From positions 2,713 through 66,712 of the forward strand of contig JBNKHE010000001.1 in assembly GCA_050290185.1 (NCBI GenBank): a stretch of DNA of 64,000 nucleotides. Reading direction: 5' to 3'. Below the pieces are notes generated by a model. The model did no database searches. It saw only the letters and a list, made by a program, of their open reading frames with translations, and was not told the DNA's origin. The stretch is from Pontiella sp. Its GTDB lineage: Bacteria; Verrucomicrobiota; Kiritimatiellia; Kiritimatiellales; Pontiellaceae. The position numbers and the translations under genes are program-made. Shown here piece by piece: positions 1-60,604 of the stretch; the stretch's first letter is position 1; the number at the start of each line of letters is the position of its first letter.

Positions 1-150
1 CAATTCACACCTAGTAAAATCCACTAAATAATCCCCAATGGTGTATTTGATGACTCACAAAGAAATTGACTACACTATTCTTATTTTATGGGGACTAATG
101 ACTCAAACTTGTTCGACCAAGGACGGCAGTCTATCCAGATCAAATTATGA

Positions 151-241
151 ATCGAACCAGCGCGTGGACCTTACGCGGTAAAACGCACAATTTTCATGCC
201 TGACGTTGGTAGTCCCGCGCAGGTCACACGTAACGTTGGCT
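151..241 (+). repeat. attC-like site 1
   Basis: ATCGAAC-cagcg-cGTGGACCTTACGCGG...CCGCGCAGGTCAC-acgtaac-GTTGGCT; inner arms pair with two bulged bases. Confidence 0.9.
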
Positions 242-257
242 TAAAATAGAGGAAACC

Positions 258-581
258 ATGTTCGGACTAATTAAGAAAAAAGAACAACCATGGCCATTTG
301 ACCAGCCTGAGAATTGTTCCGTTTTCACCCTAAAACAAATCATGGAAAAACAACTCCCTATTCTGACGATATATCATGATCAAGATGATGACGGATGGCA
401 GTTCCTTAGCAACACAGATTTGAATATGGATGATGCCATGTTGGTGACGTTGAAGAATGTGGTTGAGGTAGATTCATCTGTCTTAGAAGTAGCTCACATC
501 AAGCCTGGATTTCATGCATGGAGATCTAAGGTTGGAGATAGGTGGAACATCGAAGTAACACCACCTGATGAAGATGAATAA
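258..581 (+). CDS. Cassette protein, DUF2185/Imm33-like hypothetical
   Basis: RBS GAGG; motif P-I-L-x-x-Y-H-D-x-D-D-D-G-W-Q-F resembles DUF2185-type proteins (from memory); no signal peptide. Confidence 0.7.
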   Translation: MFGLIKKKEQPWPFDQPENCSVFTLKQIMEKQLPILTIYHDQDDDGWQFLSNTDLNMDDAMLVTLKNVVEVDSSVLEVAHIKPGFHAWRSKVGDRWNIEVTPPDEDE

Positions 582-588
582 CAAATGA

Positions 589-679
589 AGCCAACCAGCG
601 CGTGGACCTTACGCGGTAAAACGCACAATCTTCGTGCCTGACGTTGGTAGTCCCGCGCAGGTCACACCAAACGTTCGGT
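589..679 (+). repeat. attC-like site 2
   Basis: AGCCAAC...GTTCGGT; near-identical to site 1. Confidence 0.9.
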
Positions 680-688
680 AATAAAAAT

Positions 689-1147
689 ATGAAACTCTCT
701 ATCTACGTAATAGCATCAGTCATCTTTCTTAATGGTTGCAACAAGGAATCCACGACTCTTGAAGAACCTCAAGTTTTGAATGAATCCCAGAACATTGAAG
801 ATTCTGTGGCTTACTCTCAATCTGCTATGCAGAGCAGTTCCAGTGATATTTCTCCTCAACAGATTACAGTGCGATATCAGGAATTAATTTCATATTGCAC
901 CTCGATTGGTCTGACACAGCAAAGCGAAGGAACGACCTCGAAGAATAAGAGTGCTGTGCTGAGGGGAGAATTGGATAACGGTTCCACTATGTCCATAATT
1001 CCTTACCTTCAAGTTGAGGATAACGGAAACAGGAGAATCGTTGGATATTCTCTTGAGTATTCTCATCCACAGGGAAACGATCAGATCTATAATGATTACC
1101 AAGAATTAGTTCATAACTTGACTGCAATAATAAGAAAGCATAACTGA
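689..1147 (+). CDS. Cassette lipoprotein, hypothetical
   Basis: ATG after attC; MKLSIYVIASVIFLNG-C lipobox; stop overlaps next core site. Confidence 0.8.
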   Translation: MKLSIYVIASVIFLNGCNKESTTLEEPQVLNESQNIEDSVAYSQSAMQSSSSDISPQQITVRYQELISYCTSIGLTQQSEGTTSKNKSAVLRGELDNGSTMSIIPYLQVEDNGNRRIVGYSLEYSHPQGNDQIYNDYQELVHNLTAIIRKHN

Positions 1148-1285
1148 CCGAACCAGCGCGTGGACCTTACGCGGCCGAAAGCGCAGCGATAGATAATTTC
1201 CGAAGGAAATAACGAAGTGGTTCAAATCGCACAATCTATCGTGCCAAACGCTTATATCCCGCGCAGGTCACACGTAACGTTGTGC
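1147..1285 (+). repeat. attC-like site 3 (expanded central region)
   Basis: ACCGAAC...GTTGTGC with conserved arms; 139 bp. Confidence 0.85.
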
Positions 1286-1327
1286 GATAAAAATAATGCA
1301 CATCAAAGCAAACCAAGGAAAATATAT

Positions 1328-3073
1328 ATGAACATGCACCATCCATTCGGGGAAGCACGTAAATCTAACCCAATCATGAAATCACCTATGATCATCGCAC
1401 TTGCATTTCTACTGTCACCGCTGACTGTTTTTGCAGGTACATACGGCGATCTGAGCTATACCTCGGATGATTCGACCATCACCATCACGGATTGCGAAAC
1501 ATCCGTAACTAATGTGGTCATTCCCGACACCATTAACGACCTTCCGGTTACCAGCATAGGAAATTATGCCTTTTACAGTTGTGCTGATCTATCCAACGTC
1601 ACAATTCCAAACAGCATTACCAATATCGGAAATTCTGCCTTTCTTAATTGTATCAGCCTGTCCAGTATCGTGATTCCCGATAGTGTAATCAACATGGGGT
1701 ACTGGACTTTTCAATCTTGCACCAACCTATCCAACGCCACTCTCGGCAATAGTATAACCCGTATTGGAGGTGCTTTTAATAAGTGCACCAGCCTGAAAAG
1801 TATAACAATTCCTGACAGTGTTACCTCTATCGGATGGTCGAGTTTCTACACCTGCACCAGCCTGACTAACCTGTGGCTCGGCAGTGGAGTTACCAACATA
1901 GAGGACGAAGCATTCCGACTCTGCAACAGCCTGCCCGAAATTAATGTGGATCCGGAAAATGCTTACTACAGCAGTCTTGATGGAATTCTTTTCAACAAAA
2001 AACGGACATCAGTTATTCAGTGTCCGGCCGGCAAAACGGGAAGCTATGCAATTCCCGATGCCGTAACCAATATCGGCTACGCGGCATTCAACAATACCGG
2101 CCTGACCAACGTGTTTATCCCCGCCGGCGTTGTAAATATCGGGGACTGGGCCTTTGAATGGTCCACCAACATTTCGGACATCAACGTGAATGACGCCAAT
2201 CCCTTTTTCAGCAGTACAAATGGAATTCTTTTCAACAAGGATCTAACCACAATCATTCAGTATCCCGGAGGGAAGACCAACAGCACCTACGCGATACCAG
2301 ACAGTGTCGTGAATATCGGAGGCGGAGCATTTTCCTTCAGCTATCATCTATCTGAAATTCCCATTCTCAATGGCGTGACCAATATTGGTCCCGCCGCATT
2401 TCGAGACTGCCTCGGCTTTAATGAAATAATCATTCCCGACAGCGTCATCAAACTTGAATGGATGTGCTTCTACAATTGTGCCAATGTAACCAATGTTGTC
2501 ATTGGGCAAAACGTTACCGGCATTGGCTCTGGATATCATTATGGCGTCTTCGAATCCTGCACCAATCTAACCCGTTTCACGATTTCTGACAGCGTCACCA
2601 ATATATGCTACAGATGCTTTGCATCCTGCACCGGTTTGACTAATGTCATAATTGGTCAGGGAATCTCCAGTATTGGCAACTATGCTTTCGATAGCTGTCC
2701 CAGCTTGAAATATGTTTTTTTTGAAGGAGATAAACCTGCTGTAGAGACATACACCTTTCCGATAGACAGCAAGGCCTCGGTCTATTATCTGCCGGGAAGC
2801 AGCGGATGGGGAACAACTCTCAGCAGACGACCTGTTAAGCTTTGGAATCCCATTATGCAGTTGGGGGAGGAGTATGGTGCAACGACAAACGGATTTTGCT
2901 TCAACATTTCCGGCACAGTCAATATTCCCATTAAAATCGAAACTTGCACCGACCTGACGGAAGGGAACTGGGTTCCATTACAGTTCACTAAACTTTCGGA
3001 CGGTTCTCTGGATTTTATCGATCCCGCCTATGTTAGCCATCCAATGCGTGCGTATCGAATTGCCGCACCCTAA
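1328..3073 (+). CDS. Cassette BspA-type leucine-rich repeat (LRR_5) surface protein
   Basis: Many IPDSVTxIGxxAFxxCxxL repeats; signal peptide (alternative start 1376); C-terminal ...F.DP....P.R.YR domain. Confidence 0.9.
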   Translation: MNMHHPFGEARKSNPIMKSPMIIALAFLLSPLTVFAGTYGDLSYTSDDSTITITDCETSVTNVVIPDTINDLPVTSIGNYAFYSCADLSNVTIPNSITNIGNSAFLNCISLSSIVIPDSVINMGYWTFQSCTNLSNATLGNSITRIGGAFNKCTSLKSITIPDSVTSIGWSSFYTCTSLTNLWLGSGVTNIEDEAFRLCNSLPEINVDPENAYYSSLDGILFNKKRTSVIQCPAGKTGSYAIPDAVTNIGYAAFNNTGLTNVFIPAGVVNIGDWAFEWSTNISDINVNDANPFFSSTNGILFNKDLTTIIQYPGGKTNSTYAIPDSVVNIGGGAFSFSYHLSEIPILNGVTNIGPAAFRDCLGFNEIIIPDSVIKLEWMCFYNCANVTNVVIGQNVTGIGSGYHYGVFESCTNLTRFTISDSVTNICYRCFASCTGLTNVIIGQGISSIGNYAFDSCPSLKYVFFEGDKPAVETYTFPIDSKASVYYLPGSSGWGTTLSRRPVKLWNPIMQLGEEYGATTNGFCFNISGTVNIPIKIETCTDLTEGNWVPLQFTKLSDGSLDFIDPAYVSHPMRAYRIAAP

Positions 3074-3104
3074 AAGGCTATCATTGCGTCAAAGTAGAAT
3101 GTAG

Positions 3105-3212
3105 GCACAACTAGGGCATGGCCTCGACGGAGTCCGGCAGTAAATTTCAACAGTTGTGTGTCCCGAAAGAGTCGCTCCCCACCATTTTCGCGGGTCACAC
3201 CAAACGTTAGAA
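3105..3212 (+). repeat. attC-like site 4 (divergent)
   Basis: GCACAAC...gtcacaccaaac-GTTAGAA; arms partly degenerate. Confidence 0.75.
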
Positions 3213-3220
3213 ATAAGAAA

Positions 3221-3712
3221 ATGAAAAATATCTTCATCCTACTGTTGGCTTCCATCCTGATATTTGGGTGTGTTCCAAAACAAAATATTTACACAGATGA
3301 TCAGTTGGGAATTCAGATAGTAACTCCCGATAACTGGAAACCAATTTCTTCAGCTGAAGCGGGACAAGCCAACATCGTATGGGAAGAAGGACAAACCCCT
3401 CCAGTCGATGAACTGTTGCTCGGATATTTTGATCCCGATACTGGAAATCATGAAGGTACATTCATCTTGTTTAAGGGAGGAACAATAACTTCAATGCAGG
3501 ATCTGGAAGATTTAGAAAAAGGCATGACAGGATACGATAAGATCCATTGGAAAAATTATATGTGTTATCATGGGATTCAGATATCCGAAAAAAACTCAAC
3601 GTGCGAAAGCTATACCATCATTAAGGATGATGAGGTAGTGAGCTTCATGATTGGGTACTCAAAAAACCACGCTGACCCAGTGAAAAACATTTTAGATAAA
3701 ATTATTTTCTAA
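3221..3712 (+). CDS. Cassette lipoprotein, hypothetical
   Basis: MKNIFILLLASILIFG-C lipobox; TAA stop inside TTCTAAC core. Confidence 0.8.
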   Translation: MKNIFILLLASILIFGCVPKQNIYTDDQLGIQIVTPDNWKPISSAEAGQANIVWEEGQTPPVDELLLGYFDPDTGNHEGTFILFKGGTITSMQDLEDLEKGMTGYDKIHWKNYMCYHGIQISEKNSTCESYTIIKDDEVVSFMIGYSKNHADPVKNILDKIIF

Positions 3713-3794
3713 CGAGGGCATGGACTTTACCGAGAAAACGCCCGTTGATTAGGTCAAAGTTTGATTCCCCGGAAAGTCACACCAAACGTTCTTG
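3707..3794 (+). repeat. attC-like site 5
   Basis: TTCTAAC...tGGACTTTACCG...CGGAAAGTCAC...GTTCTTG. Confidence 0.8.
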
Positions 3795-3814
3795 CGGACT
3801 GCGCTACGCTTGCC

Positions 3815-3908
3815 GCAGAATCAGGCCGCTGCACCAACATTCCGGCTGGCCGTCCGCAGGCTCCGCCTGCTACCGTCCACCCGAAAGTTGGTGAGCGCCG
3901 CATTGGGT
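3815..3908 (+). repeat. attC-like site 6 (different family, AAT/ATT core) closing an ORF-less mini-cassette
   Basis: GCAGAAT-caggc-CGCTGCACCAAC...GTTGGTGAGCG-ccgc-ATTGGGT. Confidence 0.7.
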
Positions 3909-3920
3909 CAGGAGAATATA

Positions 3921-4469
3921 ATGAAATTTAAAATCCTCATCTTGTCATTATGTGTAGCATCTCAAGGGCTAGCTTGCGGGAAACAATTCGATGTATCCCC
4001 TGAAACCATCAACCAATTCCCCGTATGCTGTACAATTCATCCCCAACCATCTGGAGAACATTTCGTTTTTACTGTGTTTCTGTGGAAAGTCGGTAATTTT
4101 AAAAACATGCGCGATGCAGGTGTCGTGATAGGAAAAGACAATGACGGAAGTGATTTTGCGTGCAATTTAATGCTTAATAAATCGGATATAATTAGCGATC
4201 TATACTACATCGAATTCAATGTCTCTAAAGAACAGTTAAAAGATTCATTTATTGGGATTAGTTCCGTATCTGAAGTTGTCGATGGAAACAAGATCCATAT
4301 AGCACCTTACGTTCATATGATCCCATTGGGTGCGCTGTATGATGAATTTAAAAACAACCAATTCGACCTTTACGATGATAACTGGAAAGAAATGGTTGAG
4401 AAGTTTCTAAACCAAAAATTCGAATACAACATTGAGGTAACATCCCATACGAAGAAAGTAATACGATAG
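3921..4469 (+). CDS. Cassette exported protein / probable lipoprotein, hypothetical
   Basis: RBS AGGAG; MKFKILILSLCVASQGLA-C. Confidence 0.8.
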   Translation: MKFKILILSLCVASQGLACGKQFDVSPETINQFPVCCTIHPQPSGEHFVFTVFLWKVGNFKNMRDAGVVIGKDNDGSDFACNLMLNKSDIISDLYYIEFNVSKEQLKDSFIGISSVSEVVDGNKIHIAPYVHMIPLGALYDEFKNNQFDLYDDNWKEMVEKFLNQKFEYNIEVTSHTKKVIR

Positions 4470-4470
4470 G

Positions 4471-4560
4471 ACCCAACCAGGGCATGGACCTTACCCGGTG
4501 AAACGCACAATCTATCGCGTCGGAGTTTATGTCCCAGGCAGGTCACACCAAACGTTCGAT
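4471..4560 (+). repeat. attC-like site 7
   Basis: ACCCAAC...GGACCTTACC...GGCAGGTCAC...GTTCGAT. Confidence 0.85.
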
Positions 4561-4572
4561 GAAAGGAAATAT

Positions 4573-5175
4573 ATGAACAAAGTAATAATATTTGTTATGG
4601 GCATTTCGGTTATTTGTGGTTGCACGCATCTACAAGATCAAAGTGCTGAGCAGAAGAGCAATGCTCCTATTGACTTGTCAGAATCATACTATGACACACT
4701 AAAATCCCTTCTTGGCACATACACATTCAATATCAGACCCAAACCCACAGAGCGTGATGTCAACCTGATCGAGCCCGAAAAGGGAGGAATGGGCGTTCTC
4801 TTTGGAGCGACGATGGAAGAAGTTTTTGCTGTATGGGGCAAGCCGGCAGGAATCTGGATAAGAGGCGGTGAAGACCTTTGGGAATTTGAGATCGGTGCTT
4901 GTGATTTCGCCTTCATTGATAATTCGCTTGTAGGAATTGAAATTCATGAAGCATCAATGGAGAATGCATACTTTGAAAATGGCATCAATTTTACTTCATC
5001 AGTAGAGGAAGTAAAAGCAGCCTTTGGAGAACCCAGCGAGGAAACAAAGTACGGACTCGAATATTATACAAAAAACGGGTACTTCATTGATTTCCAATTT
5101 ACTTCTTCGGATGACAAAAATGGAGATCCAGCACTTATTAACATCTCTATTTATCACCCTGATGCTGGAAAATAA
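4573..5175 (+). CDS. Cassette lipoprotein with two internal repeats (BamE/BLIP-like motif)
   Basis: ICG-C lipobox; repeats FGATMEEVFAVWGKP and FTSSVEEVKAAFGEP. Confidence 0.8.
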   Translation: MNKVIIFVMGISVICGCTHLQDQSAEQKSNAPIDLSESYYDTLKSLLGTYTFNIRPKPTERDVNLIEPEKGGMGVLFGATMEEVFAVWGKPAGIWIRGGEDLWEFEIGACDFAFIDNSLVGIEIHEASMENAYFENGINFTSSVEEVKAAFGEPSEETKYGLEYYTKNGYFIDFQFTSSDDKNGDPALINISIYHPDAGK

Positions 5176-5179
5176 AATT

Positions 5180-5270
5180 ATCGAACCAGGGCATGGAGCT
5201 TACACGGTAAAACGCACTTTCTATCGTGCCTGACGTTTATGTCCCTTGCAGCTCACACGTAACGTTAGGT
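5180..5270 (+). repeat. attC-like site 8
   Basis: ATCGAAC...GGAGCTTAC...GCAGCTCAC...GTTAGGT; compensatory change relative to GGACC/GGTC of other copies. Confidence 0.85.
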
Positions 5271-5281
5271 AAGGAAAAAAT

Positions 5282-5770
5282 ATGAAGCACATAATTAAAT
5301 TTATAATGATCATGATGTTGTTCAGCGCATTTGGTTGCTCACGGAACCAAAAACTAACATGGTCAATGTCCTATCGAGATGAAGGAGGAAAAATTGTTTT
5401 CGTCTGCGACGGCTTCGATTTGATTTTAGAAAATTGCCAGTGGGATCATGATCCCGATACATTCTTGGCAGGTTCAACCATCTTTCCCGTTAAAAAGAGT
5501 CAAAGCATTTCAATTTCGACATCAACTACTCCTCCAAATCCAATCTTGATAAATGAGAATACAGTCGAATTTAGTTTCCCTAAACATAAGGTGAGATTGA
5601 TTGACGGGAAATTTCTAGAGGTAAATGAAAAACAGTTTGATTTATCTGAAGAAAGAAAATGCATAACGGCAAACCAAAGTGGAGAGATAATATCTAGCTC
5701 AGCTCCCAGCAAAGGTTTTGCCGATATTGACTACATTAAAAACCTCAGCACAGCAGGCAAAAATCCCTAA
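5282..5770 (+). CDS. Cassette lipoprotein, hypothetical
   Basis: RBS AAGGA; MKHIIKFIMIMMLFSAFG-C lipobox; stop within core site. Confidence 0.8.
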   Translation: MKHIIKFIMIMMLFSAFGCSRNQKLTWSMSYRDEGGKIVFVCDGFDLILENCQWDHDPDTFLAGSTIFPVKKSQSISISTSTTPPNPILINENTVEFSFPKHKVRLIDGKFLEVNEKQFDLSEERKCITANQSGEIISSSAPSKGFADIDYIKNLSTAGKNP

Positions 5771-5854
5771 CCAGAACTTGGAGCTGACACGGTACAACGC
5801 CCAATTTTTATGCCCAAAGCACAAGGCCGTGTCAGCTCACGTTTAACGTTGGAA
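5765..5854 (+). repeat. attC-like site 9
   Basis: CCCTAAC...GAGCTGACACGG...CCGTGTCAGCTC...GTTGGAA (12-bp perfect inner stem). Confidence 0.85.
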
Positions 5855-5868
5855 GAAAAGTAAATAAC

Positions 5869-6510
5869 ATGACACGATGGCTTTACCTCTCTCTTTTTAT
5901 TACATGCCTGTGGGGTTGTTCCTCGACAAAACCAGAATACCTGTCGGATGATTTGAATGAGTATCTTCTGCAAATGTCATTAGAACGAAACTCTAGTCTG
6001 ACTGATGTCTTAAAAACTGATGCCATAAAAACTGCCCATGAATTTGGAATAAAAAAAATCGATAGTATTCAACTCGGCCATACACTCCCTCTTCTTGAGC
6101 AATTCATCCGTGTTCAAGGTGATGAGGTTGTTCGTGATGGAAAAGGTCAATACAAAGATTTGATCATTCCCATTGAAGGGACGTTTACAATCGAGAAACC
6201 CGAATTTGATGTCGTTGAGTTCGTTGAAATAAAAATAAGAGGTGTGGAAACGCGGATCAGTACTTACGGAATCAATCTCGATGTTGCACAGGATGTACTG
6301 ACAAAGTTCTACACAACAAAGCACTACTATAAATCATCGCTAAACGATGAGTCTCGTCCTCCCGATGAATGTGTCCTCAAACCTAAAGCTCTCAGCCATG
6401 ACGAAGAAGAAGATGAATACGATATCTGTCTTGCAGGATGCTATATTATTCACTTCAGAATCGTAGATGGCCAGATAGTCATCATTGATTATGATCATTA
6501 TATACCATAA
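5869..6510 (+). CDS. Cassette lipoprotein, hypothetical
   Basis: MTRWLYLSLFITCLWG-C lipobox. Confidence 0.8.
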   Translation: MTRWLYLSLFITCLWGCSSTKPEYLSDDLNEYLLQMSLERNSSLTDVLKTDAIKTAHEFGIKKIDSIQLGHTLPLLEQFIRVQGDEVVRDGKGQYKDLIIPIEGTFTIEKPEFDVVEFVEIKIRGVETRISTYGINLDVAQDVLTKFYTTKHYYKSSLNDESRPPDECVLKPKALSHDEEEDEYDICLAGCYIIHFRIVDGQIVIIDYDHYIP

Positions 6511-6514
6511 ATGC

Positions 6515-6661
6515 TTCCAACCAGCGCATGGACCTTACGCGGTAAAACGCACAATATGAACCACTCCCCATGGTCGTTATTTTCTGGGTAAAATTATCAA
6601 TCGCGTTGCTCATGATATGCCCAACGCATATAGCCCGCGCAGGTCACACGTAACGGTGTAG
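6515..6661 (+). repeat. attC-like site 10 (expanded; R' mutated to GGT)
   Basis: TTCCAAC...conserved arms...taac-GGTGTAG. Confidence 0.8.
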
Positions 6662-6663
6662 AT

Positions 6664-7023
6664 ATGAAGAAAAGAAACAAAATCATCATCGCTTGTGTAT
6701 ATCTGCTTGCAATCATTTCCAGCATCCCGCCATTGGCAAGTCACTTTGGCGATTCTGGACGATACGTGTCTTTACTTCCCTTGGGAGAACCCTATCAAAG
6801 GATAATTGAATTAGTTCCCCAAAGATTAATCCGTGAAGACATACATGTCTTCGATGATACGGATTGGAACTGGGCTGTAACTCAAGCGCCTCATATGGAG
6901 GAAAAGCCATCATATGTAATGATTCTCAGCAACAGATATTTACCATTCACAGCTCCATTAGGCTACGCACTGTATTTTGATGAAAACAAATTGCTAACCG
7001 GTTCAACATGTTCGGGATTATAA
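6664..7023 (+). CDS. Cassette exported/membrane-anchored hypothetical protein
   Basis: Basic N-terminus plus hydrophobic stretch; fills the space between two attC sites. Confidence 0.7.
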   Translation: MKKRNKIIIACVYLLAIISSIPPLASHFGDSGRYVSLLPLGEPYQRIIELVPQRLIREDIHVFDDTDWNWAVTQAPHMEEKPSYVMILSNRYLPFTAPLGYALYFDENKLLTGSTCSGL

Positions 7024-7031
7024 TAAATTAG

Positions 7032-7229
7032 GCACAATCAGCGCGTGGACCTTACGCGGCCGACACGAAGTGAGGCTGGACCAGAGACAGCAATGACGTA
7101 AAGCGGAATGGCAACCGGAGCGCAAATAATTTATCGGAGATAAATAACGAGTGAAACGAGAGGTTCAAAACGCATAATCTATCGTGCCAAACGTTGGTAG
7201 TCCCGCGCAGGTCACACGTAAAGCTGGGA
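7032..7229 (+). repeat. attC-like site 11 (198 bp; cores degenerate AAT/GCT)
   Basis: GCACAAT-cagcgcgtggaccttacgcgg...cccgcgcaggtcacacgtaaa-GCTGGGA. Confidence 0.8.
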
Positions 7230-7260
7230 AGGTAAAAATAGAACATTTGGAGTATTAACC

Positions 7261-8274
7261 ATGGAAAAACAGTATTTCAATCCAGTCATGAAACGGGTGC
7301 TTGTATTTTATATATCATTTTTTCTTCCTTTGGTTTCTTTTTCTGAACTACGGCAGTGGACAGATTCCCATGGCAGAAAAATGGAGGCAGAACTCATACG
7401 AGTAGATGGAGACACGATAACGCTCCAACGTGCGAATGGAAATGAAGGAGACGTTCAGCGTTCTGACCTATCCGAAGCAGATCAAAACTATGTGGATAAA
7501 TGGGAAAAGGACCAAGAAGCAGATGCACTCCATCAAAATGAGACATATGATAATTGCTTACAGGGAACATTCTACAGCTTGACGAAAACAGCCGATGATA
7601 AAGCTTCCGACATCGGAAATTTATTTGCCGGGAGCGGCCAATCTGAAAAGGCGGATAAAGCGGCAAAGAAACTCGTGGAGTCATTTGTTAGCTCCGGATG
7701 GCGGAGTCATAAACTCAAGGAATATTATCATACGTCCGAAGTAGCGCCTCGAAATAGCTTTTATTTGACGTCTTTCGAAAAAGTCGGAGTAAAAGAAGGC
7801 GTCGATGAAAACTACTGGGTTTGTCTATACAGCGGAATGATTGCTCCAGAACAGCCGGGGAGATATCGCTTTATCGGGAGTGCCGATGACTTTCTTATGG
7901 TTCGCATAGACGACAAACTGGTATTGGATGCCAGCAAGAAGTCTATTGCAGGTTTACTCTCTGACTGGGCCAGCTCTGAGAGTTCAAATACATATGGGAG
8001 TGAGTATCTAGTTGCTGGAGACATATTTTACCTAAAGAGCGAACCGGTTCAAATGGAGGTATTGATCGGAAATTTTGATAAGCCATTCCGCGCTTCTTTG
8101 TATATCGAGCAATTGGGAGAACCATACAACGTTGTTAAAACACCTACTGGTGGACGACGTGTCCTTCCGTTATTTCAGATGAATCCTATTGGCACTCCAG
8201 AGGCAGTCAAGCTGGGGATAAACCCAGATGTTGGCACCGTAGATGGACCTGCATTTGGCGTAAAAACAAACTAA
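7261..8274 (+). CDS. Cassette secreted protein: SHD1-like domain + PA14-like domain
   Basis: Signal peptide; LRQWTDSHGRKMEAEL...LSEADQNYV (SHD1-like); GRYRFIGSADDFLMVRIDDKLVL (PA14-like). Confidence 0.8.
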   Translation: MEKQYFNPVMKRVLVFYISFFLPLVSFSELRQWTDSHGRKMEAELIRVDGDTITLQRANGNEGDVQRSDLSEADQNYVDKWEKDQEADALHQNETYDNCLQGTFYSLTKTADDKASDIGNLFAGSGQSEKADKAAKKLVESFVSSGWRSHKLKEYYHTSEVAPRNSFYLTSFEKVGVKEGVDENYWVCLYSGMIAPEQPGRYRFIGSADDFLMVRIDDKLVLDASKKSIAGLLSDWASSESSNTYGSEYLVAGDIFYLKSEPVQMEVLIGNFDKPFRASLYIEQLGEPYNVVKTPTGGRRVLPLFQMNPIGTPEAVKLGINPDVGTVDGPAFGVKTN

Positions 8275-8307
8275 CGATAACAAGGGGAAACTCGGCGAAA
8301 ACAGTTT

Positions 8308-8555
8308 CCCCAACCAGCGCGTGGACCTACGCGGCCGAAAGCGCCGCGACAGATAATTCCCAAAGGCGCTAAGCCATAATTTCCTGAAGAGAAATAATGA
8401 ACAGAGAGAACGGTTCAATAACGAAGTGGTTCAGAACGCACCCTCCCCTGCCAAGGTTTCATCCTTCGCTGAAGCTACGGCAGACGAGATGGCGAACAGG
8501 CAAATTTTCATGCCTGACGTTGGTAGTCCCGCGCAGGTCACATGTAACGTTGGGG
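8308..8555 (+). repeat. attC-like site 12 (248 bp; contains a REP-like insertion)
   Basis: CCCCAAC...GTTGGGG with family arms; central region expanded. Confidence 0.8.
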
Positions 8556-8563
8556 TAAAAGGA

Positions 8564-9295
8564 ATGAATAGAAAACTGATCTATCTTATTGCTACCTGCT
8601 TTGCGATTTTGTCTTTAATGCCAGTACGCACACATGCAAATCCAGACCATCTCACTCCTTGCCCTGTTTATTGCACTACTTATGACGCTGCGGTGTTTTC
8701 TGCCCTGTTAAACAATACAAAGCCACGCCTTTGGATGATCGTGTGGCCTGGTCGTGGAGGACAATCTGCAGTAATCATTGACGAGAAAATTGAGTATGAG
8801 GAAACTGACAATTCTTATGAAGTCAAGAGCCGACAACTATTCCTGAAATATGTCGCATTTAAAAATAAGTATTCCCCGCACCACATCCCATGGTCTTATA
8901 ATCCGGACGATCATTATAATGTTGATATGTCAAACGATCTCGAGCGTTGTGAGATTCCTATTGATATTGATTTTTCCACCACAATGGAGAGCGCTTGGAG
9001 TCGTGTACTGTCGACCACGAAGTATTCAGACGGGTATAACGACGGATCATCATACGTATTCTATTGTGATAGCCGCTTTGGCTGCACAGACTATTCCCCG
9101 GGAGGTGGCCTACCGCTGAAGCTTTGCGATCTTGGAGAAAAACTTTGCTTGTTGGCACAATCGGAAAATGAAGACAGAGATTCACTCACACAGCAGTGTC
9201 TCGAACTAGCTGCAACCATCAAGAAAACAACGAACCCCAACCAGGGTATGGACCCTACCTCGGCCAACGCACAATCTGTCGCGCCTGAAGATTGA
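8564..9295 (+). CDS. Cassette secreted hypothetical protein (Cys-containing); C-terminus encoded by attC 13
   Basis: RBS AAGGA; signal peptide ending ...THA; stop lies inside the attC. Confidence 0.75.
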   Translation: MNRKLIYLIATCFAILSLMPVRTHANPDHLTPCPVYCTTYDAAVFSALLNNTKPRLWMIVWPGRGGQSAVIIDEKIEYEETDNSYEVKSRQLFLKYVAFKNKYSPHHIPWSYNPDDHYNVDMSNDLERCEIPIDIDFSTTMESAWSRVLSTTKYSDGYNDGSSYVFYCDSRFGCTDYSPGGGLPLKLCDLGEKLCLLAQSENEDRDSLTQQCLELAATIKKTTNPNQGMDPTSANAQSVAPED

Positions 9296-9325
9296 GTACG
9301 AGGCGGATCACACGTAACGTTCTGC
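9235..9325 (+). repeat. attC-like site 13
   Basis: CCCCAAC...GGACCCTACCTCG...CGAGGCGGATCAC...GTTCTGC. Confidence 0.8.
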
Positions 9326-9337
9326 AGAGGAAAAAAG

Positions 9338-10918
9338 ATGAAACTACCAATTATGATTTTAACGTCGGCTCTATTGCTCGGAGGTTGCTCCCGCAAACAG
9401 AGGGAAATCACAATCACTCTACCGGAAGAGCGCATTGAATCCGGTTGGATGTCTTGTCCTGAAATGGATGTGTATCTGAAAGAGTTCAGTAATAATCACA
9501 AAGGTGATCTCTACTGGATAGATGCTGTTGATGGACGCTGGGAGAATGATGAACTGCAGTTTCGCCTGAGACAAAGTCAAGTTCCCGCCAGTGCGGGGCA
9601 TATGTGGTATTGGTGGTTTAATCAGGATGAGAGCTCATTTCAAGGACATCTACAGGAGATGAAAAGGCAAGGCATCACGCTCGTCTACCGTCAGGAATTT
9701 AAACTACCTAATGGCGAAACACGATTCCAGGGCGTTTGGCAACAGGTCTATGGGACGGATGGAAACCAGCGCAAACCTTTTAAGACCCCGAAGTCCGAGC
9801 TCGAAGAAATGCTCCACGAGCTGGATTATGGTTGGGAGCCTGCCGATGAATATCAAAAAAAATATGCCGACCGCTTGGACCGCTCCGCACTTGCGCTATG
9901 CCTCTTAGGTGAGCGATATGGACGTGAGGGTCATCATAAGAAAGCCCTCGAAATGCTCCAGAAGGCCGTACAGGTTGAAGCTAACCGAACGACGCGGAAA
10001 GCCTTAGCGAAACAATATCTCAGAATGGGCGATACCGAGGCTTGGCTGGATCAAATGTTGGCCATCCTTGACCAGCCGGAGAGTCGCATGGACGCTATTT
10101 TAACCCACCAGGAAATGGCGGATTATTTTGTTGCGGTCGGAGAATGGGATAAAGCATGGCCCCACATTGGCCCTTCCACAGAGAGTAACAGCTGGTTGCC
10201 ACTGATGAAGGCTGCTTGGTATTATGGACTTACCGGACACTCCGCCGAGGGAGTGAACTGCCTCGAGCAAATGGCGAGCGGATTTGGAAGCGAAGATATC
10301 TACAACTATCTTCTCGCATTTAACTTTAAACCAACCGGCCCTCTTCAGAAACAGCTGAATCAGACCTACCAATGGCAGGCCAACGGGGATCATGTTTCTC
10401 TATCAAAGGCCGCCTGTATTTCATTGGTTAATCAGGACATTGAAGATGCCGCAGCCCTACTGATGAATGCGTTGAAGTTATCTAATGATCCCTGGTATGG
10501 CGTCTTCGGTGCGATCATTTGTGATCAACAAGAATGGCATAAGCAGCGGGATGAATTTTTACAGGAAGCGGTTATCCGCTTCCCCAAACTAGAAAACCCG
10601 TCCAATAACCGGCAGGGGCTCAGACAGTTTCTTGATCTATATATCAAAGCCAATGCAGAAGGCATTTCCCCCGAACTCAAAGTGCAATTCAAGGAGTTTT
10701 CCACCTCCTATCGTTATGAAGGCTTCAATGTGGATGCGCATGCCTTCGCTGGCGAAGTTTTACGCCTCAACGGTGAAACCGAACTCGCGACGGAAATTTT
10801 CGGTGAAGCCATCAGACCATATTTGCAACAGCGTATATGTGAGTTTCTAGTATATCAGGGACTACGTTCAATGGGGGAAGACCCCAAATTAATGCTTGCC
10901 CAAGAAAATAAAAAATAA
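9338..10918 (+). CDS. Cassette lipoprotein with TPR-like helical region
   Basis: LLLGG-C lipobox; TPR-like pattern LGERYGREGHHKKALEMLQKAV. Confidence 0.8.
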   Translation: MKLPIMILTSALLLGGCSRKQREITITLPEERIESGWMSCPEMDVYLKEFSNNHKGDLYWIDAVDGRWENDELQFRLRQSQVPASAGHMWYWWFNQDESSFQGHLQEMKRQGITLVYRQEFKLPNGETRFQGVWQQVYGTDGNQRKPFKTPKSELEEMLHELDYGWEPADEYQKKYADRLDRSALALCLLGERYGREGHHKKALEMLQKAVQVEANRTTRKALAKQYLRMGDTEAWLDQMLAILDQPESRMDAILTHQEMADYFVAVGEWDKAWPHIGPSTESNSWLPLMKAAWYYGLTGHSAEGVNCLEQMASGFGSEDIYNYLLAFNFKPTGPLQKQLNQTYQWQANGDHVSLSKAACISLVNQDIEDAAALLMNALKLSNDPWYGVFGAIICDQQEWHKQRDEFLQEAVIRFPKLENPSNNRQGLRQFLDLYIKANAEGISPELKVQFKEFSTSYRYEGFNVDAHAFAGEVLRLNGETELATEIFGEAIRPYLQQRICEFLVYQGLRSMGEDPKLMLAQENKK

Positions 10919-10996
10919 GCAGAACCAGAAAACTGACTTTACGGTGAAAGCGCCGGTTTACGCTATGCTCACCGAAAGTCATGTTCAACGTAGGGC
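10919..10996 (+). repeat. attC-like site 14 (last; R' side reads GTA)
   Basis: GCAGAAC...GACTTTACGGTGA...TCACCGAAAGTC...aac-GTAGGGC. Confidence 0.8.
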
Positions 10997-11023
10997 GCAG
11001 GCCAGACGCAACGTTCGTACAAT

Positions 11024-12370
11024 CTACTTGCAGCCGCAGGAACCGGATCCGCAACCACTCGCGGTTTTCGCGGCCAGCTCCCGAATGGTGGTGTACGGAA
11101 AGAAGCCGGTGTTGTGGCCGTCGGACCAGTCGACCGTAATAGCATAGTTTCCGATGGTTCCGATCTTTTCCGCATGGATGTCCATGGGAATGGATTTCGG
11201 GTCGAGCAAAGGTGCCCGGGTCATTTCATCGACGCACAGGGCACAGCTGCAAGCCCGGCGCAAGGCGGCGTTGGAAACCGTGGCGGTTTCGCCGTCGGAC
11301 CAGGTCAACGTTATCGTCTTGGCATCAAAATCAATCTGCGGCTTGCTCGGCTTTTCCATCACCTTCTTACCGAGTGTGCGTATAATGATATCGGTCGTCT
11401 CATTGGCGATTCCGCTTTCAGCCAACGCGTCGAGCGAGCCGCTCAGGTTGCCGGTAATCGGCAGCTCGGCAATTGTTTCCAGGCCGAAGCGCTCTTCGAG
11501 CGTCTTTCCGCCGGCTTCGCCGAAAATGTAGTGCTTTTTGTCGCACCCGTCACAAACAAAGTAGGCCATGTTTTCCACCACACCGAGTACAGGCACATTC
11601 ACCTTGTCGAACATCATGATGCCCTTGCGCACGTCGGTCAGAGAAAGCTGGTGGGGGGTGGTGACGATAACCGATGCATCAATCTGTACGGATTGGGAAA
11701 TCGTCAACTGGATGTCGCCGGTACCGGGCGGCATGTCGATCACCAGATAGTCGAGATCGCCCCACACCACGCCATGCAGCAGCTGCTGCATGTATTGGGC
11801 AACCATGGGCCCGCGCAATACGGCCGGCCCATCGCCCATCAGAAAACCGAATGACATGAGCTTCAGGCCATCGACTTCGTTGGGGATAAACTGTTGCTCC
11901 GGTGTAGCGCGAACACCCGGCTCATGCAGATTGAACAAGGTAGGAATCGAGGGTCCGTAGATATCGGCATCCAGCAACCCGACCTTGGCACCGCGGGCCC
12001 CCAGCGTCTTCGCCAGCAACGCGGCTACCGTGGACTTGCCCACCCCGCCCTTGCACGAGCTGACGGCGAGAATAAACTTCACATCCTTCAGGCCGCTGTT
12101 TTCCGCGGACAACTGCCGTCCCTCCCGCTTACGTGCCGTCATGTTCACCAACACCTTTTCAACGCCGGGAATATCGCCAACGAGATCAACGGCCTGCTTC
12201 TGGAACACAGGGCTCAGCGGACAGGCCGGGGTCGTCAGCTCGATCGTGAACGCAATCGTTCCACCCTCAATCTTCATATCCTGCACAAAACCCAGCGAAA
12301 CAATATCGCGGTGAAAGTCGGGATCGATAATCTTGCTCAACTCTGCGAGCACCTGCTTTTCAGTAATCAT
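11024..12370 (-). CDS. apbC: Mrp/NBP35 Fe-S cluster carrier ATPase with N-terminal DUF59 and C-terminal DUF971 (HCF101-like architecture)
   Basis: IIDPDFHRDIVSLG (DUF59); SCKGGVGKST P-loop; DMPPGTGD; VVENM..CDGC; LRRACSCALC...WSDGHNTG (DUF971). Confidence 0.9.
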   Translation of the reverse strand: MITEKQVLAELSKIIDPDFHRDIVSLGFVQDMKIEGGTIAFTIELTTPACPLSPVFQKQAVDLVGDIPGVEKVLVNMTARKREGRQLSAENSGLKDVKFILAVSSCKGGVGKSTVAALLAKTLGARGAKVGLLDADIYGPSIPTLFNLHEPGVRATPEQQFIPNEVDGLKLMSFGFLMGDGPAVLRGPMVAQYMQQLLHGVVWGDLDYLVIDMPPGTGDIQLTISQSVQIDASVIVTTPHQLSLTDVRKGIMMFDKVNVPVLGVVENMAYFVCDGCDKKHYIFGEAGGKTLEERFGLETIAELPITGNLSGSLDALAESGIANETTDIIIRTLGKKVMEKPSKPQIDFDAKTITLTWSDGETATVSNAALRRACSCALCVDEMTRAPLLDPKSIPMDIHAEKIGTIGNYAITVDWSDGHNTGFFPYTTIRELAAKTASGCGSGSCGCK

Positions 12371-12386
12371 GGAAATCCTTTCAAAA

Positions 12387-12431
12387 AGCCGCCAAGATGG
12401 CGGCGATACGTATCGCAGGCTGCCAGCCTGC
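12387..12431. repeat. Two REP-like short palindromes
   Basis: GCCGCCaagatGGCGGC and GCAGGCTgccAGCCTGC in the sufT-mrp spacer. Confidence 0.55.
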
Positions 12432-12435
12432 CTTG

Positions 12436-12789
12436 TTAAATCAAACCCAGTGCGAGCAATGCGGCGGTGGACATTTTCTCCCGTGTCCACGGGGGATCAA
12501 AAACCAGGTCGATATCAACGTCGCTTACACCTTTGGTCATCTTGACCGCATTGTAGATATTTCCGGGAATATATTCCGCCTCGGGACAGTTGGGCGCGGT
12601 CAGCGTCATCTGAACGTAGACCTTATTATCTTCGTCCACCTCGAGCTTGTAGATCAGGCCAAGGTCGTAGACGTTGACCGGAATCTCCGGATCGAAAACC
12701 ATTCGCAACGAACGGACCACCTCAAGGAACAGTCCCTCGTCAGCATCCTTCAATAGCTTGCGTTCTTTCTTCTTTCTAAAAATCGCCAT
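12436..12789 (-). CDS. sufT: Fe-S assembly protein SufT (DUF59)
   Basis: VFDPEIPVNVYDLGLIY...MTLTAPNCP...FDPPW. Confidence 0.9.
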   Translation of the reverse strand: MAIFRKKKERKLLKDADEGLFLEVVRSLRMVFDPEIPVNVYDLGLIYKLEVDEDNKVYVQMTLTAPNCPEAEYIPGNIYNAVKMTKGVSDVDIDLVFDPPWTREKMSTAALLALGLI

Positions 12790-59650: not shown

Positions 59651-60604
59651 TCAGGCCCGTGGATGGGCGAGCTGGTAGACCTCTTTGAGGCGCTCGACGG
59701 ATACGTGGGTGTAAATCTGCGTGGTGGAGAGCGAGGCGTGGCCCAGCAGTTCCTGCACACTGCGCAGATCGGCGCCGGCATCAAGCAGATGGGTCGCAAA
59801 GCTGTGGCGCAAACTGTGGGGCGACAGCTCGGCATTGAGGCCGCAGAACAGGACATATTTCTTCATCATGCGCTCGATGGAGCGCGCAGTAATCGGTCCA
59901 CCGTTTTTATTGAGGAACACCGGACTGCGGACATCGCGCCTGCCTTCGAGCAGCCAGACGTTTTCCCGCAGCTCGAGATTTTTCATCAACGTCCGGATGG
60001 CGGGCGAACCCAGCGGACAAAGCCGCTCCTTCTTGCCTTTACCGCGCACACGTGCCACGCCGGAAAGCAGATCGATGCGCTCCTCGGGCAACTGCACCAG
60101 TTCGTTGATGCGCATGCCGGTGCTGTAGAGAAGCTCCAGAATTGCGGAGTCGCGCGCGACCATGTATTCGCGCCACAGCTGTTGCTTCGGATTTCCCGAG
60201 GCTTGCGTTTCGTTGTATTTGGCCGGCGCATCGAGCAGTTTCCCGGCTTCATTCACCGAAAGAATCTGCGGTAGATAATTGCCCTTTTTCGGCAGACTCA
60301 GGCCGCTGAACGGATTCTGTTCCACATATTCCTCCCGCAGGAGAAACTTGTAGAACGAGCGCAGGGCGGAAAGCTTGCGTCCCGTGGTGGTCGGCGCCAT
60401 TTCCAGTTTCTGGAAAAACACCAGAAACTTGCGCGCCGTAAAACGGTCGGCCTGACCCCACTTGTAGGGCGGTTGCGCATTCTCGCCCCAGGTGATTTCG
60501 CAGAACTGCCGGATATCGATCAGATAGTTGCTGATTGTATGCTCCGAGGCGTTTTTCTCGCCTTCGAGATACTTTACAAAATGCGCTATGCACGGATCGT
60601 TCAT
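59651..60604 (-). CDS. xerC: Tyrosine recombinase XerC
   Basis: STGMRINEL, GKGKKER, HSLRHSFATHLL, LLGH, TQIYTH; dprA-topA-xerC synteny. Confidence 0.9.
   Translation of the reverse strand: MNDPCIAHFVKYLEGEKNASEHTISNYLIDIRQFCEITWGENAQPPYKWGQADRFTARKFLVFFQKLEMAPTTTGRKLSALRSFYKFLLREEYVEQNPFSGLSLPKKGNYLPQILSVNEAGKLLDAPAKYNETQASGNPKQQLWREYMVARDSAILELLYSTGMRINELVQLPEERIDLLSGVARVRGKGKKERLCPLGSPAIRTLMKNLELRENVWLLEGRRDVRSPVFLNKNGGPITARSIERMMKKYVLFCGLNAELSPHSLRHSFATHLLDAGADLRSVQELLGHASLSTTQIYTHVSVERLKEVYQLAHPRA

Follow-up and report, generated by a model that had tools for sequence, protein, structure and literature searches.

Among the sedentary chromosomal integrons whose attC family is lineage-specific is the superintegron of Vibrio cholerae with its V. 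cholerae repeats (VCRs). Large integrons of the sedentary type have been described best for Vibrio and a few further Proteobacteria. Here, we describe an array of integron cassettes in the marine bacterium Pontiella sp., a member of the Kiritimatiellales, which are a polysaccharide-degrading lineage of the Planctomycetes-Verrucomicrobia-Chlamydiae (PVC) group. The stretch analysed (hereafter the window) comprises 64,000 nt and corresponds to positions 2713-66712 of the 805-kb contig C1 in an assembly of 163 contigs and 3.58 Mb (G000). Coordinates without a contig label are window positions, and C-labels denote contigs of G000. The array is located at the start of C1 with core genes alongside, covers positions 155-11015, and is a real integron cassette array, i.e., a known kind of element in an under-described lineage and at an unusual scale. 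Positions 1-11015 most likely represent the distal (oldest) end of a chromosomal cassette array of the sedentary integron type, which probably starts at an attI-like site without an integrase of its own.

Sedentary chromosomal integrons were treated as a general class by Cury et al. 2016 (PMC4889954) and Neron et al. 2022 (PMC9024848). Cury et al. defined complete integrons, In0 elements, and attC site clusters without an integron integrase (CALIN), the latter without an intI gene within 4 kb. CALIN with up to 114 sites were reported, of which 83% comprise fewer than 6 sites and only 6.6% more than 10. Integrase loss, rearrangement, and insertion at secondary sites were given as their origins, and it was suggested that their cassettes can be mobilised by an integrase encoded elsewhere. 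Large arrays were delimited by more than 19 sites in this study; more than 10 sites were suggested by Neron et al., who found 93% of the complete integrons in the Gammaproteobacteria. In the main text of the latter study no term beginning with Kiritimatiell, Verrucomicrob, Planctomycet, or Lentisphaer occurs, and its supplementary tables may list such genomes.

In agreement with sedentary integrons, C1 carries 19 sites of a homogeneous attC family beside core genes on an 805-kb contig. The array shares with the CALIN of Cury et al. (PMC4889954) the presence of two or more attC sites without a nearby intI, since no integron integrase (IntI) is encoded rightward for 53 kb of the window; the left side is a contig break. 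G000 also harbours a complete integron and a lone, In0-like IntI. It differs in size (at least 19 sites on C1, at least 29 if an array on C3 is joined to it) and by an apparent attI-like head, a feature that could not be scored in that survey because attI is unknown for most integrons. Genome-wide, more than 100 small cassettes of mostly unknown function, one homogeneous attC family, the chromosomal location, the higher A+T content compared to the core, and an IntI encoded on C5 whose alignment with the V. cholerae IntI structure runs end to end resemble the V. cholerae superintegron. In contrast, the host belongs to the Kiritimatiellales (PVC group) and not to the Gammaproteobacteria, the cassettes are distributed over several arrays of which only one has an adjacent integrase, the C5 IntI carries approximately 148 additional aa at its N-terminus, and the sites reach 240 nt. 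Like the chromosomal integrons of Xanthomonas (bioRxiv 10.1101/2025.06.18.660453), the array occupies a chromosomal site next to housekeeping genes. The Xanthomonas site is fixed within the genus, whereas the site used in G000 is occupied in some species only, empty in three relatives, and devoid of an integrase remnant at the array head.

An initial annotation, made from the letters of the window, had proposed the distal end of a chromosomal integron, or a CALIN, in a lineage where integrons are little studied. This proposal is supported, with the evidence favouring a CALIN whose head carries an attI-like site but no integrase. Likewise, a literature search found no paper on integrons in Pontiella, and combining integron with terms beginning with Kiritimatiell returned, judged by title, only resistome or microbiome surveys.

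Conserved Hairpin Architecture of the attC Sites

Using the 16-nt pattern GGTCACACSWAACGTT of the 3' arm and allowing up to 3 mismatches, 12 matches were obtained in the 64-kb window, all of them on the plus strand within 222-11015. In 100 shuffles, the mean was 1.09 and the maximum 4, and 12 matches were reached in none. A 13th site (5769-5850) was recovered by a DNA profile and by the covariance model R1, which was built from our own alignment. The initial annotation had listed 14 palindromes; the repeats are real and situated where it placed them, but their number is 13, and the 14th may be a G+C-rich hairpin at 3791-3913, which is a different element. The consensus given there proved to be correct on inspection of the aligned sites. 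The sites range from 80 to 240 nt in length, and AAC and GTT are both present in 11 of the 13 (Table 1).

For the comparative analysis, 28 sites were aligned (11 of the window, six from the 2.7 kb leftward, and 11 from C15). RNAalifold predicted 14 pairs, nine of them with compensatory changes. A structure of 17 pairs was then composed of the RNAalifold pairs for the L box and the inner stems and of R-box pairs added by hand. In the 28-site alignment, 95.6% of the paired cells are able to pair compared to 86.1% in column shuffles, and changes on both sides occur in 9 of the 17 pairs (40 cells). None of 500 shuffles matched the observed values on any of five measures, and pairing falls to 14-42% if the 3' partner is slid by 1-3 columns. 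The three R-box AAC/GTT pairs are conserved in 28, 27, and 28 of the 28 sequences, respectively, and the bulges occupy fixed alignment columns. From outside to inside, the hairpin consists of the R box AAC/GTT, a partly unpaired spacer, the L box GACCT/AGGTC with flanking bulges, a CGCGG stem, and a loop of approximately 30 to 190 nt. Judged from this alignment, the window repeats have the architecture of attC sites (R''-L''...L'-R') with a partly unpaired spacer, fixed bulges, and a variable loop. Paired boxes with bulged bases had already been noted in the initial annotation, and compensatory changes maintain the hairpin. A scan of positions 1-12000 against Rfam with E-values up to 1 gave no match for the sites or for the G+C-rich element.

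Cassette Arrays across the Genome

Leftward of the window, the array continues to the start of C1 with six further attC sites (C1:270-2571), resulting in a total of 19 on this contig. The attC DNA profile yielded 176 matches in G000, approximately 26 of them cut by contig ends, and R1 yielded at least 147, i.e., about 150 complete attC sites of one family are present in the 3.58-Mb genome. They are found on 42 of the 149 contigs under 10 kb. The attC repeat evidently broke the assembly, and for genome annotation these 42 small contigs are to be regarded as cassette fragments. Array regions of the large contigs together with 51.5 kb of small site-bearing contigs amount to at least approximately 90 kb of cassettes. 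A Kiritimatiellales genome with this amount of cassettes of one attC family widens the known range of superintegron-scale platforms.

Within any one array, all attC sites are located on the same strand. Of 124 inter-site segments genome-wide, four were skipped due to N, and among the 120 usable segments 93 contain an open reading frame (ORF) of at least 40 aa on the same strand, 16 on the opposite strand, and 11 none. The 12 cassettes of the window measure 438-1927 nt and contain one plus-strand ORF each, starting 6-130 nt past the preceding GTT. Single co-oriented, A+T-richer ORFs between the sites, as described in the initial annotation, therefore apply to 12 out of 12 window cassettes, with a G+C content of 0.44 for the array compared to 0.54 for the following 5 kb. 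A unit length of 438-1927 nt and the presence of an ORF in each unit speak against clustered regularly interspaced short palindromic repeats (CRISPR) or tandem repeats as a description of the array. The internal array of C4 includes many sites of a size class of approximately 145 nt with lower R1 scores (30-65 bits) and has cassette relatives in common with the genome G061.

The scan of the genome and its relatives recommended in the initial annotation was carried out with R1. Matches were found in 29 of 41 genomes, and an IntI above the cut-off of TIGR02249 (integron integrase, 265 bits) in 18 of 41, G000 being counted in both. Two other species contain at least 103 and at least 104 R1 matches, respectively.

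Integron Integrases

Two IntI above the cut-off are encoded in G000 (C5:3602-4534, 406 bits; C3:254837-255775, 365 bits), and none was obtained in 14 control genomes. Both frames are intact with their catalytic motifs kept. The C5 frame comprises 460 aa, of which residues 151-458 align with residues 8-318 of the V. cholerae IntI structure 2A3V (E 2e-85) with short gaps only across the IntI-specific segment. The motifs GLRLMEC, GKGGK.R, HTLRHSFATHLL, GH, and IYTHV are preserved. Since the C5 intI and an adjacent array with sites of the same attC family are divergently oriented, this locus represents a complete integron. The second IntI (C3:254447-255805) is situated between hisF-like and hisI-like genes, named from N-terminal translations only. 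No attC or attI-like motif was found near it, and it is therefore regarded as an In0-like lone IntI. Absence of IntI from the genome and its relatives, which according to the initial annotation would speak against an integron, is not what was observed, given two IntI above the cut-off, of which that of C5 diverges from an array.

Both IntI possess approximately 130-148 additional N-terminal residues (C5: approximately 148 aa, C5:3158-3601). No Pfam match was obtained for the extension of the C5 protein, but it may represent a second SAM-like domain, because the SAM-like domain PF13495 is reported in two stretches of the C3 IntI. The extension, with the motifs LGR...WQFRQ and DW..W....H.TL.RE, is common to IntI labelled Zetaproteobacteria, Gammaproteobacteria, Desulfohalobiaceae, Syntrophorhabdus, and Pontiellaceae.

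In the window itself, the initial annotation had noted no integrase, and this is confirmed. The only TIGR02249 matches there are two sub-cut-off stretches (79 and 31.5 bits) of one Xer-like tyrosine recombinase frame of 344 aa (59696-60145, C1:62408-62857), which was rejected as an integron integrase due to scores far below 265 bits. IntI fragments were not detected within 10 kb of the C3 array head or the C1 tail, and likewise not at the array ends of C4 and C7. A stretch of 20 aa matching the IntI C-terminus (70% identity, E 0.002) was observed on the opposite strand at C5:285978-286037, approximately 0.7 kb ahead of the array at the C5 end. This marginal match may be a remnant of a lost integrase.

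Twin attI-Like Sites and the hup-mrp Locus

On C5, the spacer between the intI start codon and the first cassette ORF is only 87 nt long. It contains two TTCTACCTAA repeats and ends with ...CCTAATCAACTGTTGGA. A 36-nt attI-like site ending with AACTGTTGGA is located directly before the first cassette and 45 nt from the intI start. A second 36-mer, identical in 33 of 36 positions, lies directly before the first cassette ORF of C3 (C3:5884-5919), and at up to 8 mismatches these two are the only copies in G000. Upstream of the C3 site, 330 nt of non-coding sequence are followed by a hup-like gene (PF00216), without an integrase. In the relatives, a 17-nt core of the site occurs beside intI in 5 of the 14 IntI loci scanned, namely the four closest IntI orthologues with 64-69% protein identity (G007, G036, and two G032 loci) and L077 with 49%. 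Due to its position and the conservation of its core, the 36-nt site is assigned as the putative attI of this IntI clade. The initial annotation had advised looking left of the window for intI and attI. The array was found to reach the contig start in this direction, with the six additional attC sites mentioned above, and only by synteny does the putative attI on C3 come into play.

The right border of the array lies 8 bases from a gene encoding an Mrp/ApbC-like Fe-S carrier NTPase, which shows 68-82% DNA identity across the genus. When 52 further genomes of the genus were searched at the DNA level, the same range of identity was observed for the region right of 11022, where all sequence is core. 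The cassette region is not common to these genomes, except for attC matches and a few cassettes. The initial annotation had the array end before a suf operon. The position is correct, but the name is only approximate because the flank encodes, next to the Mrp/ApbC-like NTPase, FeS_assembly_P, NifU_N, and a class-V aminotransferase, i.e., a cluster for Fe-S biogenesis.

The left flank of the Mrp gene was read in 15 relatives, three of which provide too little flanking sequence to tell. In G011, G061, and G006, the hup-like gene directly adjoins the Mrp gene in the orientation of reverse-complemented C3 followed by C1, and R1 with filters off detected no site in the spacer. G023 (C47, L105:1696-2499) exhibits a hup-like gene, a ZnuABC-type operon, the attI-like core, a 94-aa ORF, an attC site (104 bits), a 133-aa ORF, and the Mrp gene. 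In this mini-array no attC follows the 133-aa ORF, the ZnuABC-type operon takes the place where an integrase would be expected, and no match of the G023 genome (89% complete) to IntI exceeded the cut-off. In G000, an array at a contig end lies opposite each of the two genes, the hup-like and the Mrp gene, and the orientations match. Most simply, C3 at approximately 6130 and the window at approximately 11020 would be the borders of a single insertion between hup and mrp. Since hup-like and Mrp genes are adjacent in relatives and the C3 head with its attI-like site lies beside the hup-like gene, the window most likely forms the tail of an array that is headed by attI but has no integrase of its own (CALIN), which would comprise at least 29 sites plus some of the small contigs.

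Comparative Evidence for Cassette Mobility

For cassette 12 (9320-11013), a copy with 84% identity is located in G007, approximately 2.75 Mb from the Mrp gene of that genome and with a different attC behind it. The homology begins at the first T after the crossover G (G/TT) and ends inside the attC. A 94% identical copy occurs in G061, whose hup-Mrp site is empty, after a cassette whose G000 homologue is situated in the C4 array. These borders are those expected of cassettes that move as units bounded at the G/TT crossover. An invariant gene order among relatives, named in the initial annotation as a point that would refute an integron, is at variance with the site being empty in three relatives, with a fourth relative carrying a mini-array of one attC, and with the different surroundings of cassette 12 in two species.

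For cassette 11, a homologue with 74% DNA identity is located among core-gene homologues in G046 (C53, L129:3739-4447), and no attC was detected beside it with filters off. It is either a cassette that has lost its site or an ordinary gene of the kind from which cassettes derive.

Public sequence was available as Logan contigs only, from four runs of one study, which contain 91-96% of the sampled words. The best-matching run may be the genome's own sample and is then not independent. Some adjacencies of the array are confirmed by single public contigs, which span 1256-3779, 3876-5237, 5216-6547, and 9446-12023, the last covering the tail junction. All 15 joints listed for these contigs were rejected as excision or reshuffling events, as all sides are 22-29 nt inside the repeat and thus repeat artefacts. 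Contig depth over repeat bins is unusable as copy number.

Proposed Mechanism and Alternative Explanations

The following scheme combines computed features (the attC sites with their covariation, a single ORF in each unit, intact IntI genes, two similar attI-like sites, the unoccupied site of relatives, and cassette-exact homology in other species) with the established integron mechanism, from which the chemistry, the strand used, circular intermediates, action in trans, and silent distal cassettes are adopted. The array would start on C3 at the attI-like site by the hup-like gene, without an integrase, continue through unassembled cassettes into the window, and end 8 bases from the Mrp/ApbC gene. 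Each unit would provide one short, mostly promoterless gene followed by an attC whose single strand folds into an imperfect hairpin. The C5 IntI, which has its own attI and array, the lone C3 IntI, or both may act on the window array in trans. Through attC x attC recombination on the folded strand, cassettes would be released by IntI as circles, which would be inserted again at either attI. The distal cassettes presumably form a largely silent stock.

A tentative extension is that the integron of this genus is a distributed system, in which one or two integrases serve several arrays in trans, including an orphan-attI second landing pad at the hup-mrp site of at least two species (G000 and G023). 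If so, attI and array can persist, perhaps grow, without an integrase in cis, and together with approximately 150 cassettes in 3.6 Mb and more than 100 model matches in each of two other species, this would constitute a superintegron lineage outside the Proteobacteria. The twin attI-like sites, one of them without integrase, constitute a simple natural test case for the supply of a remote array by an integrase in trans.

Several observations weigh against the window being the tail of an attI-headed CALIN. The attI assignment draws on position and conservation only, and C3 and C1 were joined by synteny, not by sequence, in an assembly that is broken in every array. Furthermore, G000 contains additional array heads, at least two in number (the start of C5 with intI, and its end), as well as two additional tails (C7 and C14), and the window could therefore belong to the intI-bearing integron. 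In 8 of the 15 relatives, the Mrp neighbours map elsewhere in G000, i.e., to C7 at approximately 140 kb in seven cases and to C5 at approximately 184 kb in one. As these neighbours differ among relatives, the locus has been rearranged in the genus. At the level of the sites, 2 of 13 lack the GTT core (GGT and GCT), one of them AAC as well, which speaks for decay. Minimum-energy folds of 11 bottom strands, folded as DNA, gave z-scores of -2.9 to -4.0 for three sites and between +0.33 and -1.31 for eight, with the L boxes paired arm to arm in 8 of 11 and unpaired in 3 of 11. As most single-site z-scores are unremarkable, the structural support is comparative and not energetic. The bottom-strand folding that the initial annotation had named as a refuting point did not refute the reading; an attC-like hairpin is maintained by compensatory changes. 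Finally, no trustworthy rearrangement joint was found in the public contigs over positions 1-12500. Provided that the C3 array ends at another tail, e.g., on C7 or C14, the window would be the distal end of the complete C5 integron (intI, attI, cassettes). C5 is indeed the only integrase-linked head, its array extends past the contig start with the correct orientation, all contigs carry the same attC family, and the hup-Mrp neighbourhood is not conserved genus-wide. Nevertheless, this arrangement appears improbable, as the hup-like gene is located next to or a few kb from the Mrp gene in the four relatives with the highest Mrp DNA identity and a readable flank (G023, G061, G011, and also G006), both G000 genes face contig-end arrays of matching orientation, and G023 possesses the attI-like core at the same hup-mrp site. 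An attempt to tie the window to the C5 integrase by synteny failed, as the genes left of Mrp in the more distant relatives mostly correspond to internal positions on C7, and in one case to an internal position on C5.

Two further explanations concern the state and the nature of the array. It may be a fossil that was once built by an integron, is no longer recombined, and is now ordinary accessory chromosome. We consider this rather unlikely, since two intact IntI frames with catalytic motifs are present and many attC sites are 90-100% identical to one another, a trait tied to active large arrays by Cury et al. 2016 (PMC4889954), even though no integrase lies in cis, R' cores are mutated in 2 of 13 sites (R'' as well in one), the terminal attC 13 is composite, and the four public runs contain no trustworthy joints. 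The scarcity of paralogues, with only three groups among 93 cassette proteins, two of which may reflect assembly redundancy of C15 and C20, would also fit a fossil, but cassette 12 occurs at 84-94% identity with different neighbours in two species, and relatives with 77-82% identity of the Mrp gene have an empty hup-mrp site, which makes the array younger than those splits. That the repeats are other intergenic palindromes, e.g., repetitive extragenic palindromes or bacterial interspersed mosaic elements (REP/BIME-like), miniature inverted-repeat transposable elements (MITEs), or terminators, and not recombination sites, is extremely improbable. Imperfect palindromes downstream of ORFs with mostly shuffled-like folding energies would be compatible with such elements, but not the location of all sites of an array on one strand, the invariant AAC...GTT ends and bulges kept while the stems co-vary, the restriction to arrays of A+T-richer single genes, the start of one array beside an integron integrase, and the onset of interspecies cassette homology at the G/TT point. 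An attI-headed CALIN remains the preferred reading of the window array.

Features of the Window and Cassette Content

Coordinates of attC sites, cassette ORFs, and arrays are compiled in Table 1, together with the conservation of genes flanking IntI, by which the host is assigned to the Kiritimatiellales, close to the Pontiellaceae. The truncated cassette at the left window end recurs elsewhere in the genome, with positions 1-239 being 100% identical to C15:2051-2289 and 98% identical to C16:6648-6887.

Table 1. Features of the window array, further attC arrays of G000, and protein identity of IntI-flanking genes to their G000 counterparts (MAG, metagenome-assembled genome).
Feature	Coordinates	Strand	Remarks
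Truncated cassette end	1-235	+	cassette start left of window
attC 1	155-237	+	83 nt, AAC...GTT
Cassette 1 ORF	258-581	+	107 aa; weak Imm33-like, E 2.6e-4, 21.2 bits (cut-off 25.4)
attC 2	593-675	+	83 nt
Cassette 2 ORF	689-1147	+	152 aa; lipoprotein-like N-terminus; no Pfam match
attC 3	1151-1281	+	131 nt; long central insert
Cassette 3 ORF	1328-3073	+	581 aa; BspA-type leucine-rich repeats (PF13306, E 1.2e-78); signal-like N-terminus
attC 4	3109-3208	+	100 nt; divergent; arms unpaired in minimum-energy fold
Cassette 4 ORF	3221-3712	+	163 aa; lipoprotein-like; no Pfam match
attC 5	3711-3790	+	80 nt
G+C-rich hairpin element	3791-3913	+	approximately 123 nt; directly after attC 5 GTT, leads cassette 5; folding z-score -4.3
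Cassette 5 ORF	3921-4469	+	182 aa; lipoprotein-like; no Pfam match
attC 6	4475-4556	+	82 nt
Cassette 6 ORF	4573-5175	+	200 aa; lipoprotein-like
attC 7	5184-5266	+	83 nt
Cassette 7 ORF	5282-5770	+	162 aa; lipoprotein-like
attC 8	5769-5850	+	82 nt; strongest hairpin, z-score -3.97
Cassette 8 ORF	5869-6510	+	213 aa; lipoprotein-like
attC 9	6519-6657	+	139 nt; R' core mutated to GGT (6655-6657)
Cassette 9 ORF	6664-7023	+	119 aa
attC 10	7036-7225	+	190 nt; both R cores mutated (AAT...GCT; GCT at 7223-7225)
Cassette 10 ORF	7261-8274	+	337 aa; SHD1 and PA14 domains
attC 11	8312-8551	+	240 nt, longest; insert modules common to attC 3 (repeat families D15, D18)
Cassette 11 ORF	8564-9295	+	243 aa; only a 16-bit Pfam match to Haemadin, far under cut-off
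attC 12	9239-9321	+	83 nt
Cassette 12 ORF	9338-10918	+	526 aa; lipoprotein-like; weak TPR matches
attC 13 (terminal)	10923-11015	+	z-score -3.03
Mrp/ApbC-like Fe-S carrier NTPase (right flank)	11024-12490	-	first gene of conserved core, convergent with array
Array	C1:270-13730	+	19 sites; runs off contig start
Array	C3:420-5443	-	10 sites; runs off contig start
Array	C5:174-2685	-	5 sites; runs off contig start
Array	C5:286733-287146	+	2 sites; runs off contig end
Array	C7:245250-247670	-	6 sites; near contig end
Array	C4:245362-257650	+	18 sites; internal, integrase-less
IntI-flanking genes, L087 ('Kiritimatiellales bacterium')			89-94% protein identity; syntenic
IntI-flanking genes, L078 ('Kiritimatiellales bacterium')			77-87% protein identity
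IntI-flanking genes, L077 ('Verrucomicrobiota bacterium' MAG)			78-83% protein identity
IntI-flanking genes, L088 ('Pontiellaceae bacterium')			62-86% protein identity; syntenic
IntI-flanking genes, Lentisphaeria and Victivallaceae loci			47-60% protein identity

Due to its AAT and GCT cores, attC 10 has probably been lost as a crossover site. By inspection, attC 13 looks like a composite of a hairpin (approximately 10923-10992) and an apparent leftover 3' half-site ending with AACGTT. The central loops of the long attC sites hold common inserted modules at 1168-1232, 8328-8441, and also 7116-7227 (repeat families D12, D15, and D18), as if these loops were themselves assembled from reusable pieces.

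Except for cassettes 1, 3, 10, and 12, no usable Pfam match was obtained for the cassette proteins (8 out of 12). Read by eye, seven of the 12 N-termini are lipoprotein-like, with a hydrophobic stretch ending in G/A-C at residues 17-19, and four further ones are signal-like or membrane-like. By this reading, the window array appears strongly biased to exported proteins, and the cassette set is rich in exported, lipoprotein-like proteins of unknown function. Genome-wide, a lipobox regular expression matched 21 of 93 cassette proteins, which is only a rough figure because the expression is poorly tuned, i.e., clear cases were missed and one doubtful case was matched. PADLOC assigned none of the 12 cassette proteins to a defence family, and a single match with E 0.0067 was disregarded.

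The G+C-rich hairpin element at 3791-3913 does not belong to the attC family described here. A near-identical copy is present in the C4 array, located before a different ORF and behind a different attC subtype. Further full or partial copies were observed on C7, C14, and C150, all of them at or beside attC arrays. Possible identities of the element are a promoter or leader carried by a cassette, a cassette without an ORF, or a small mobile insert with the crossover point as its target.

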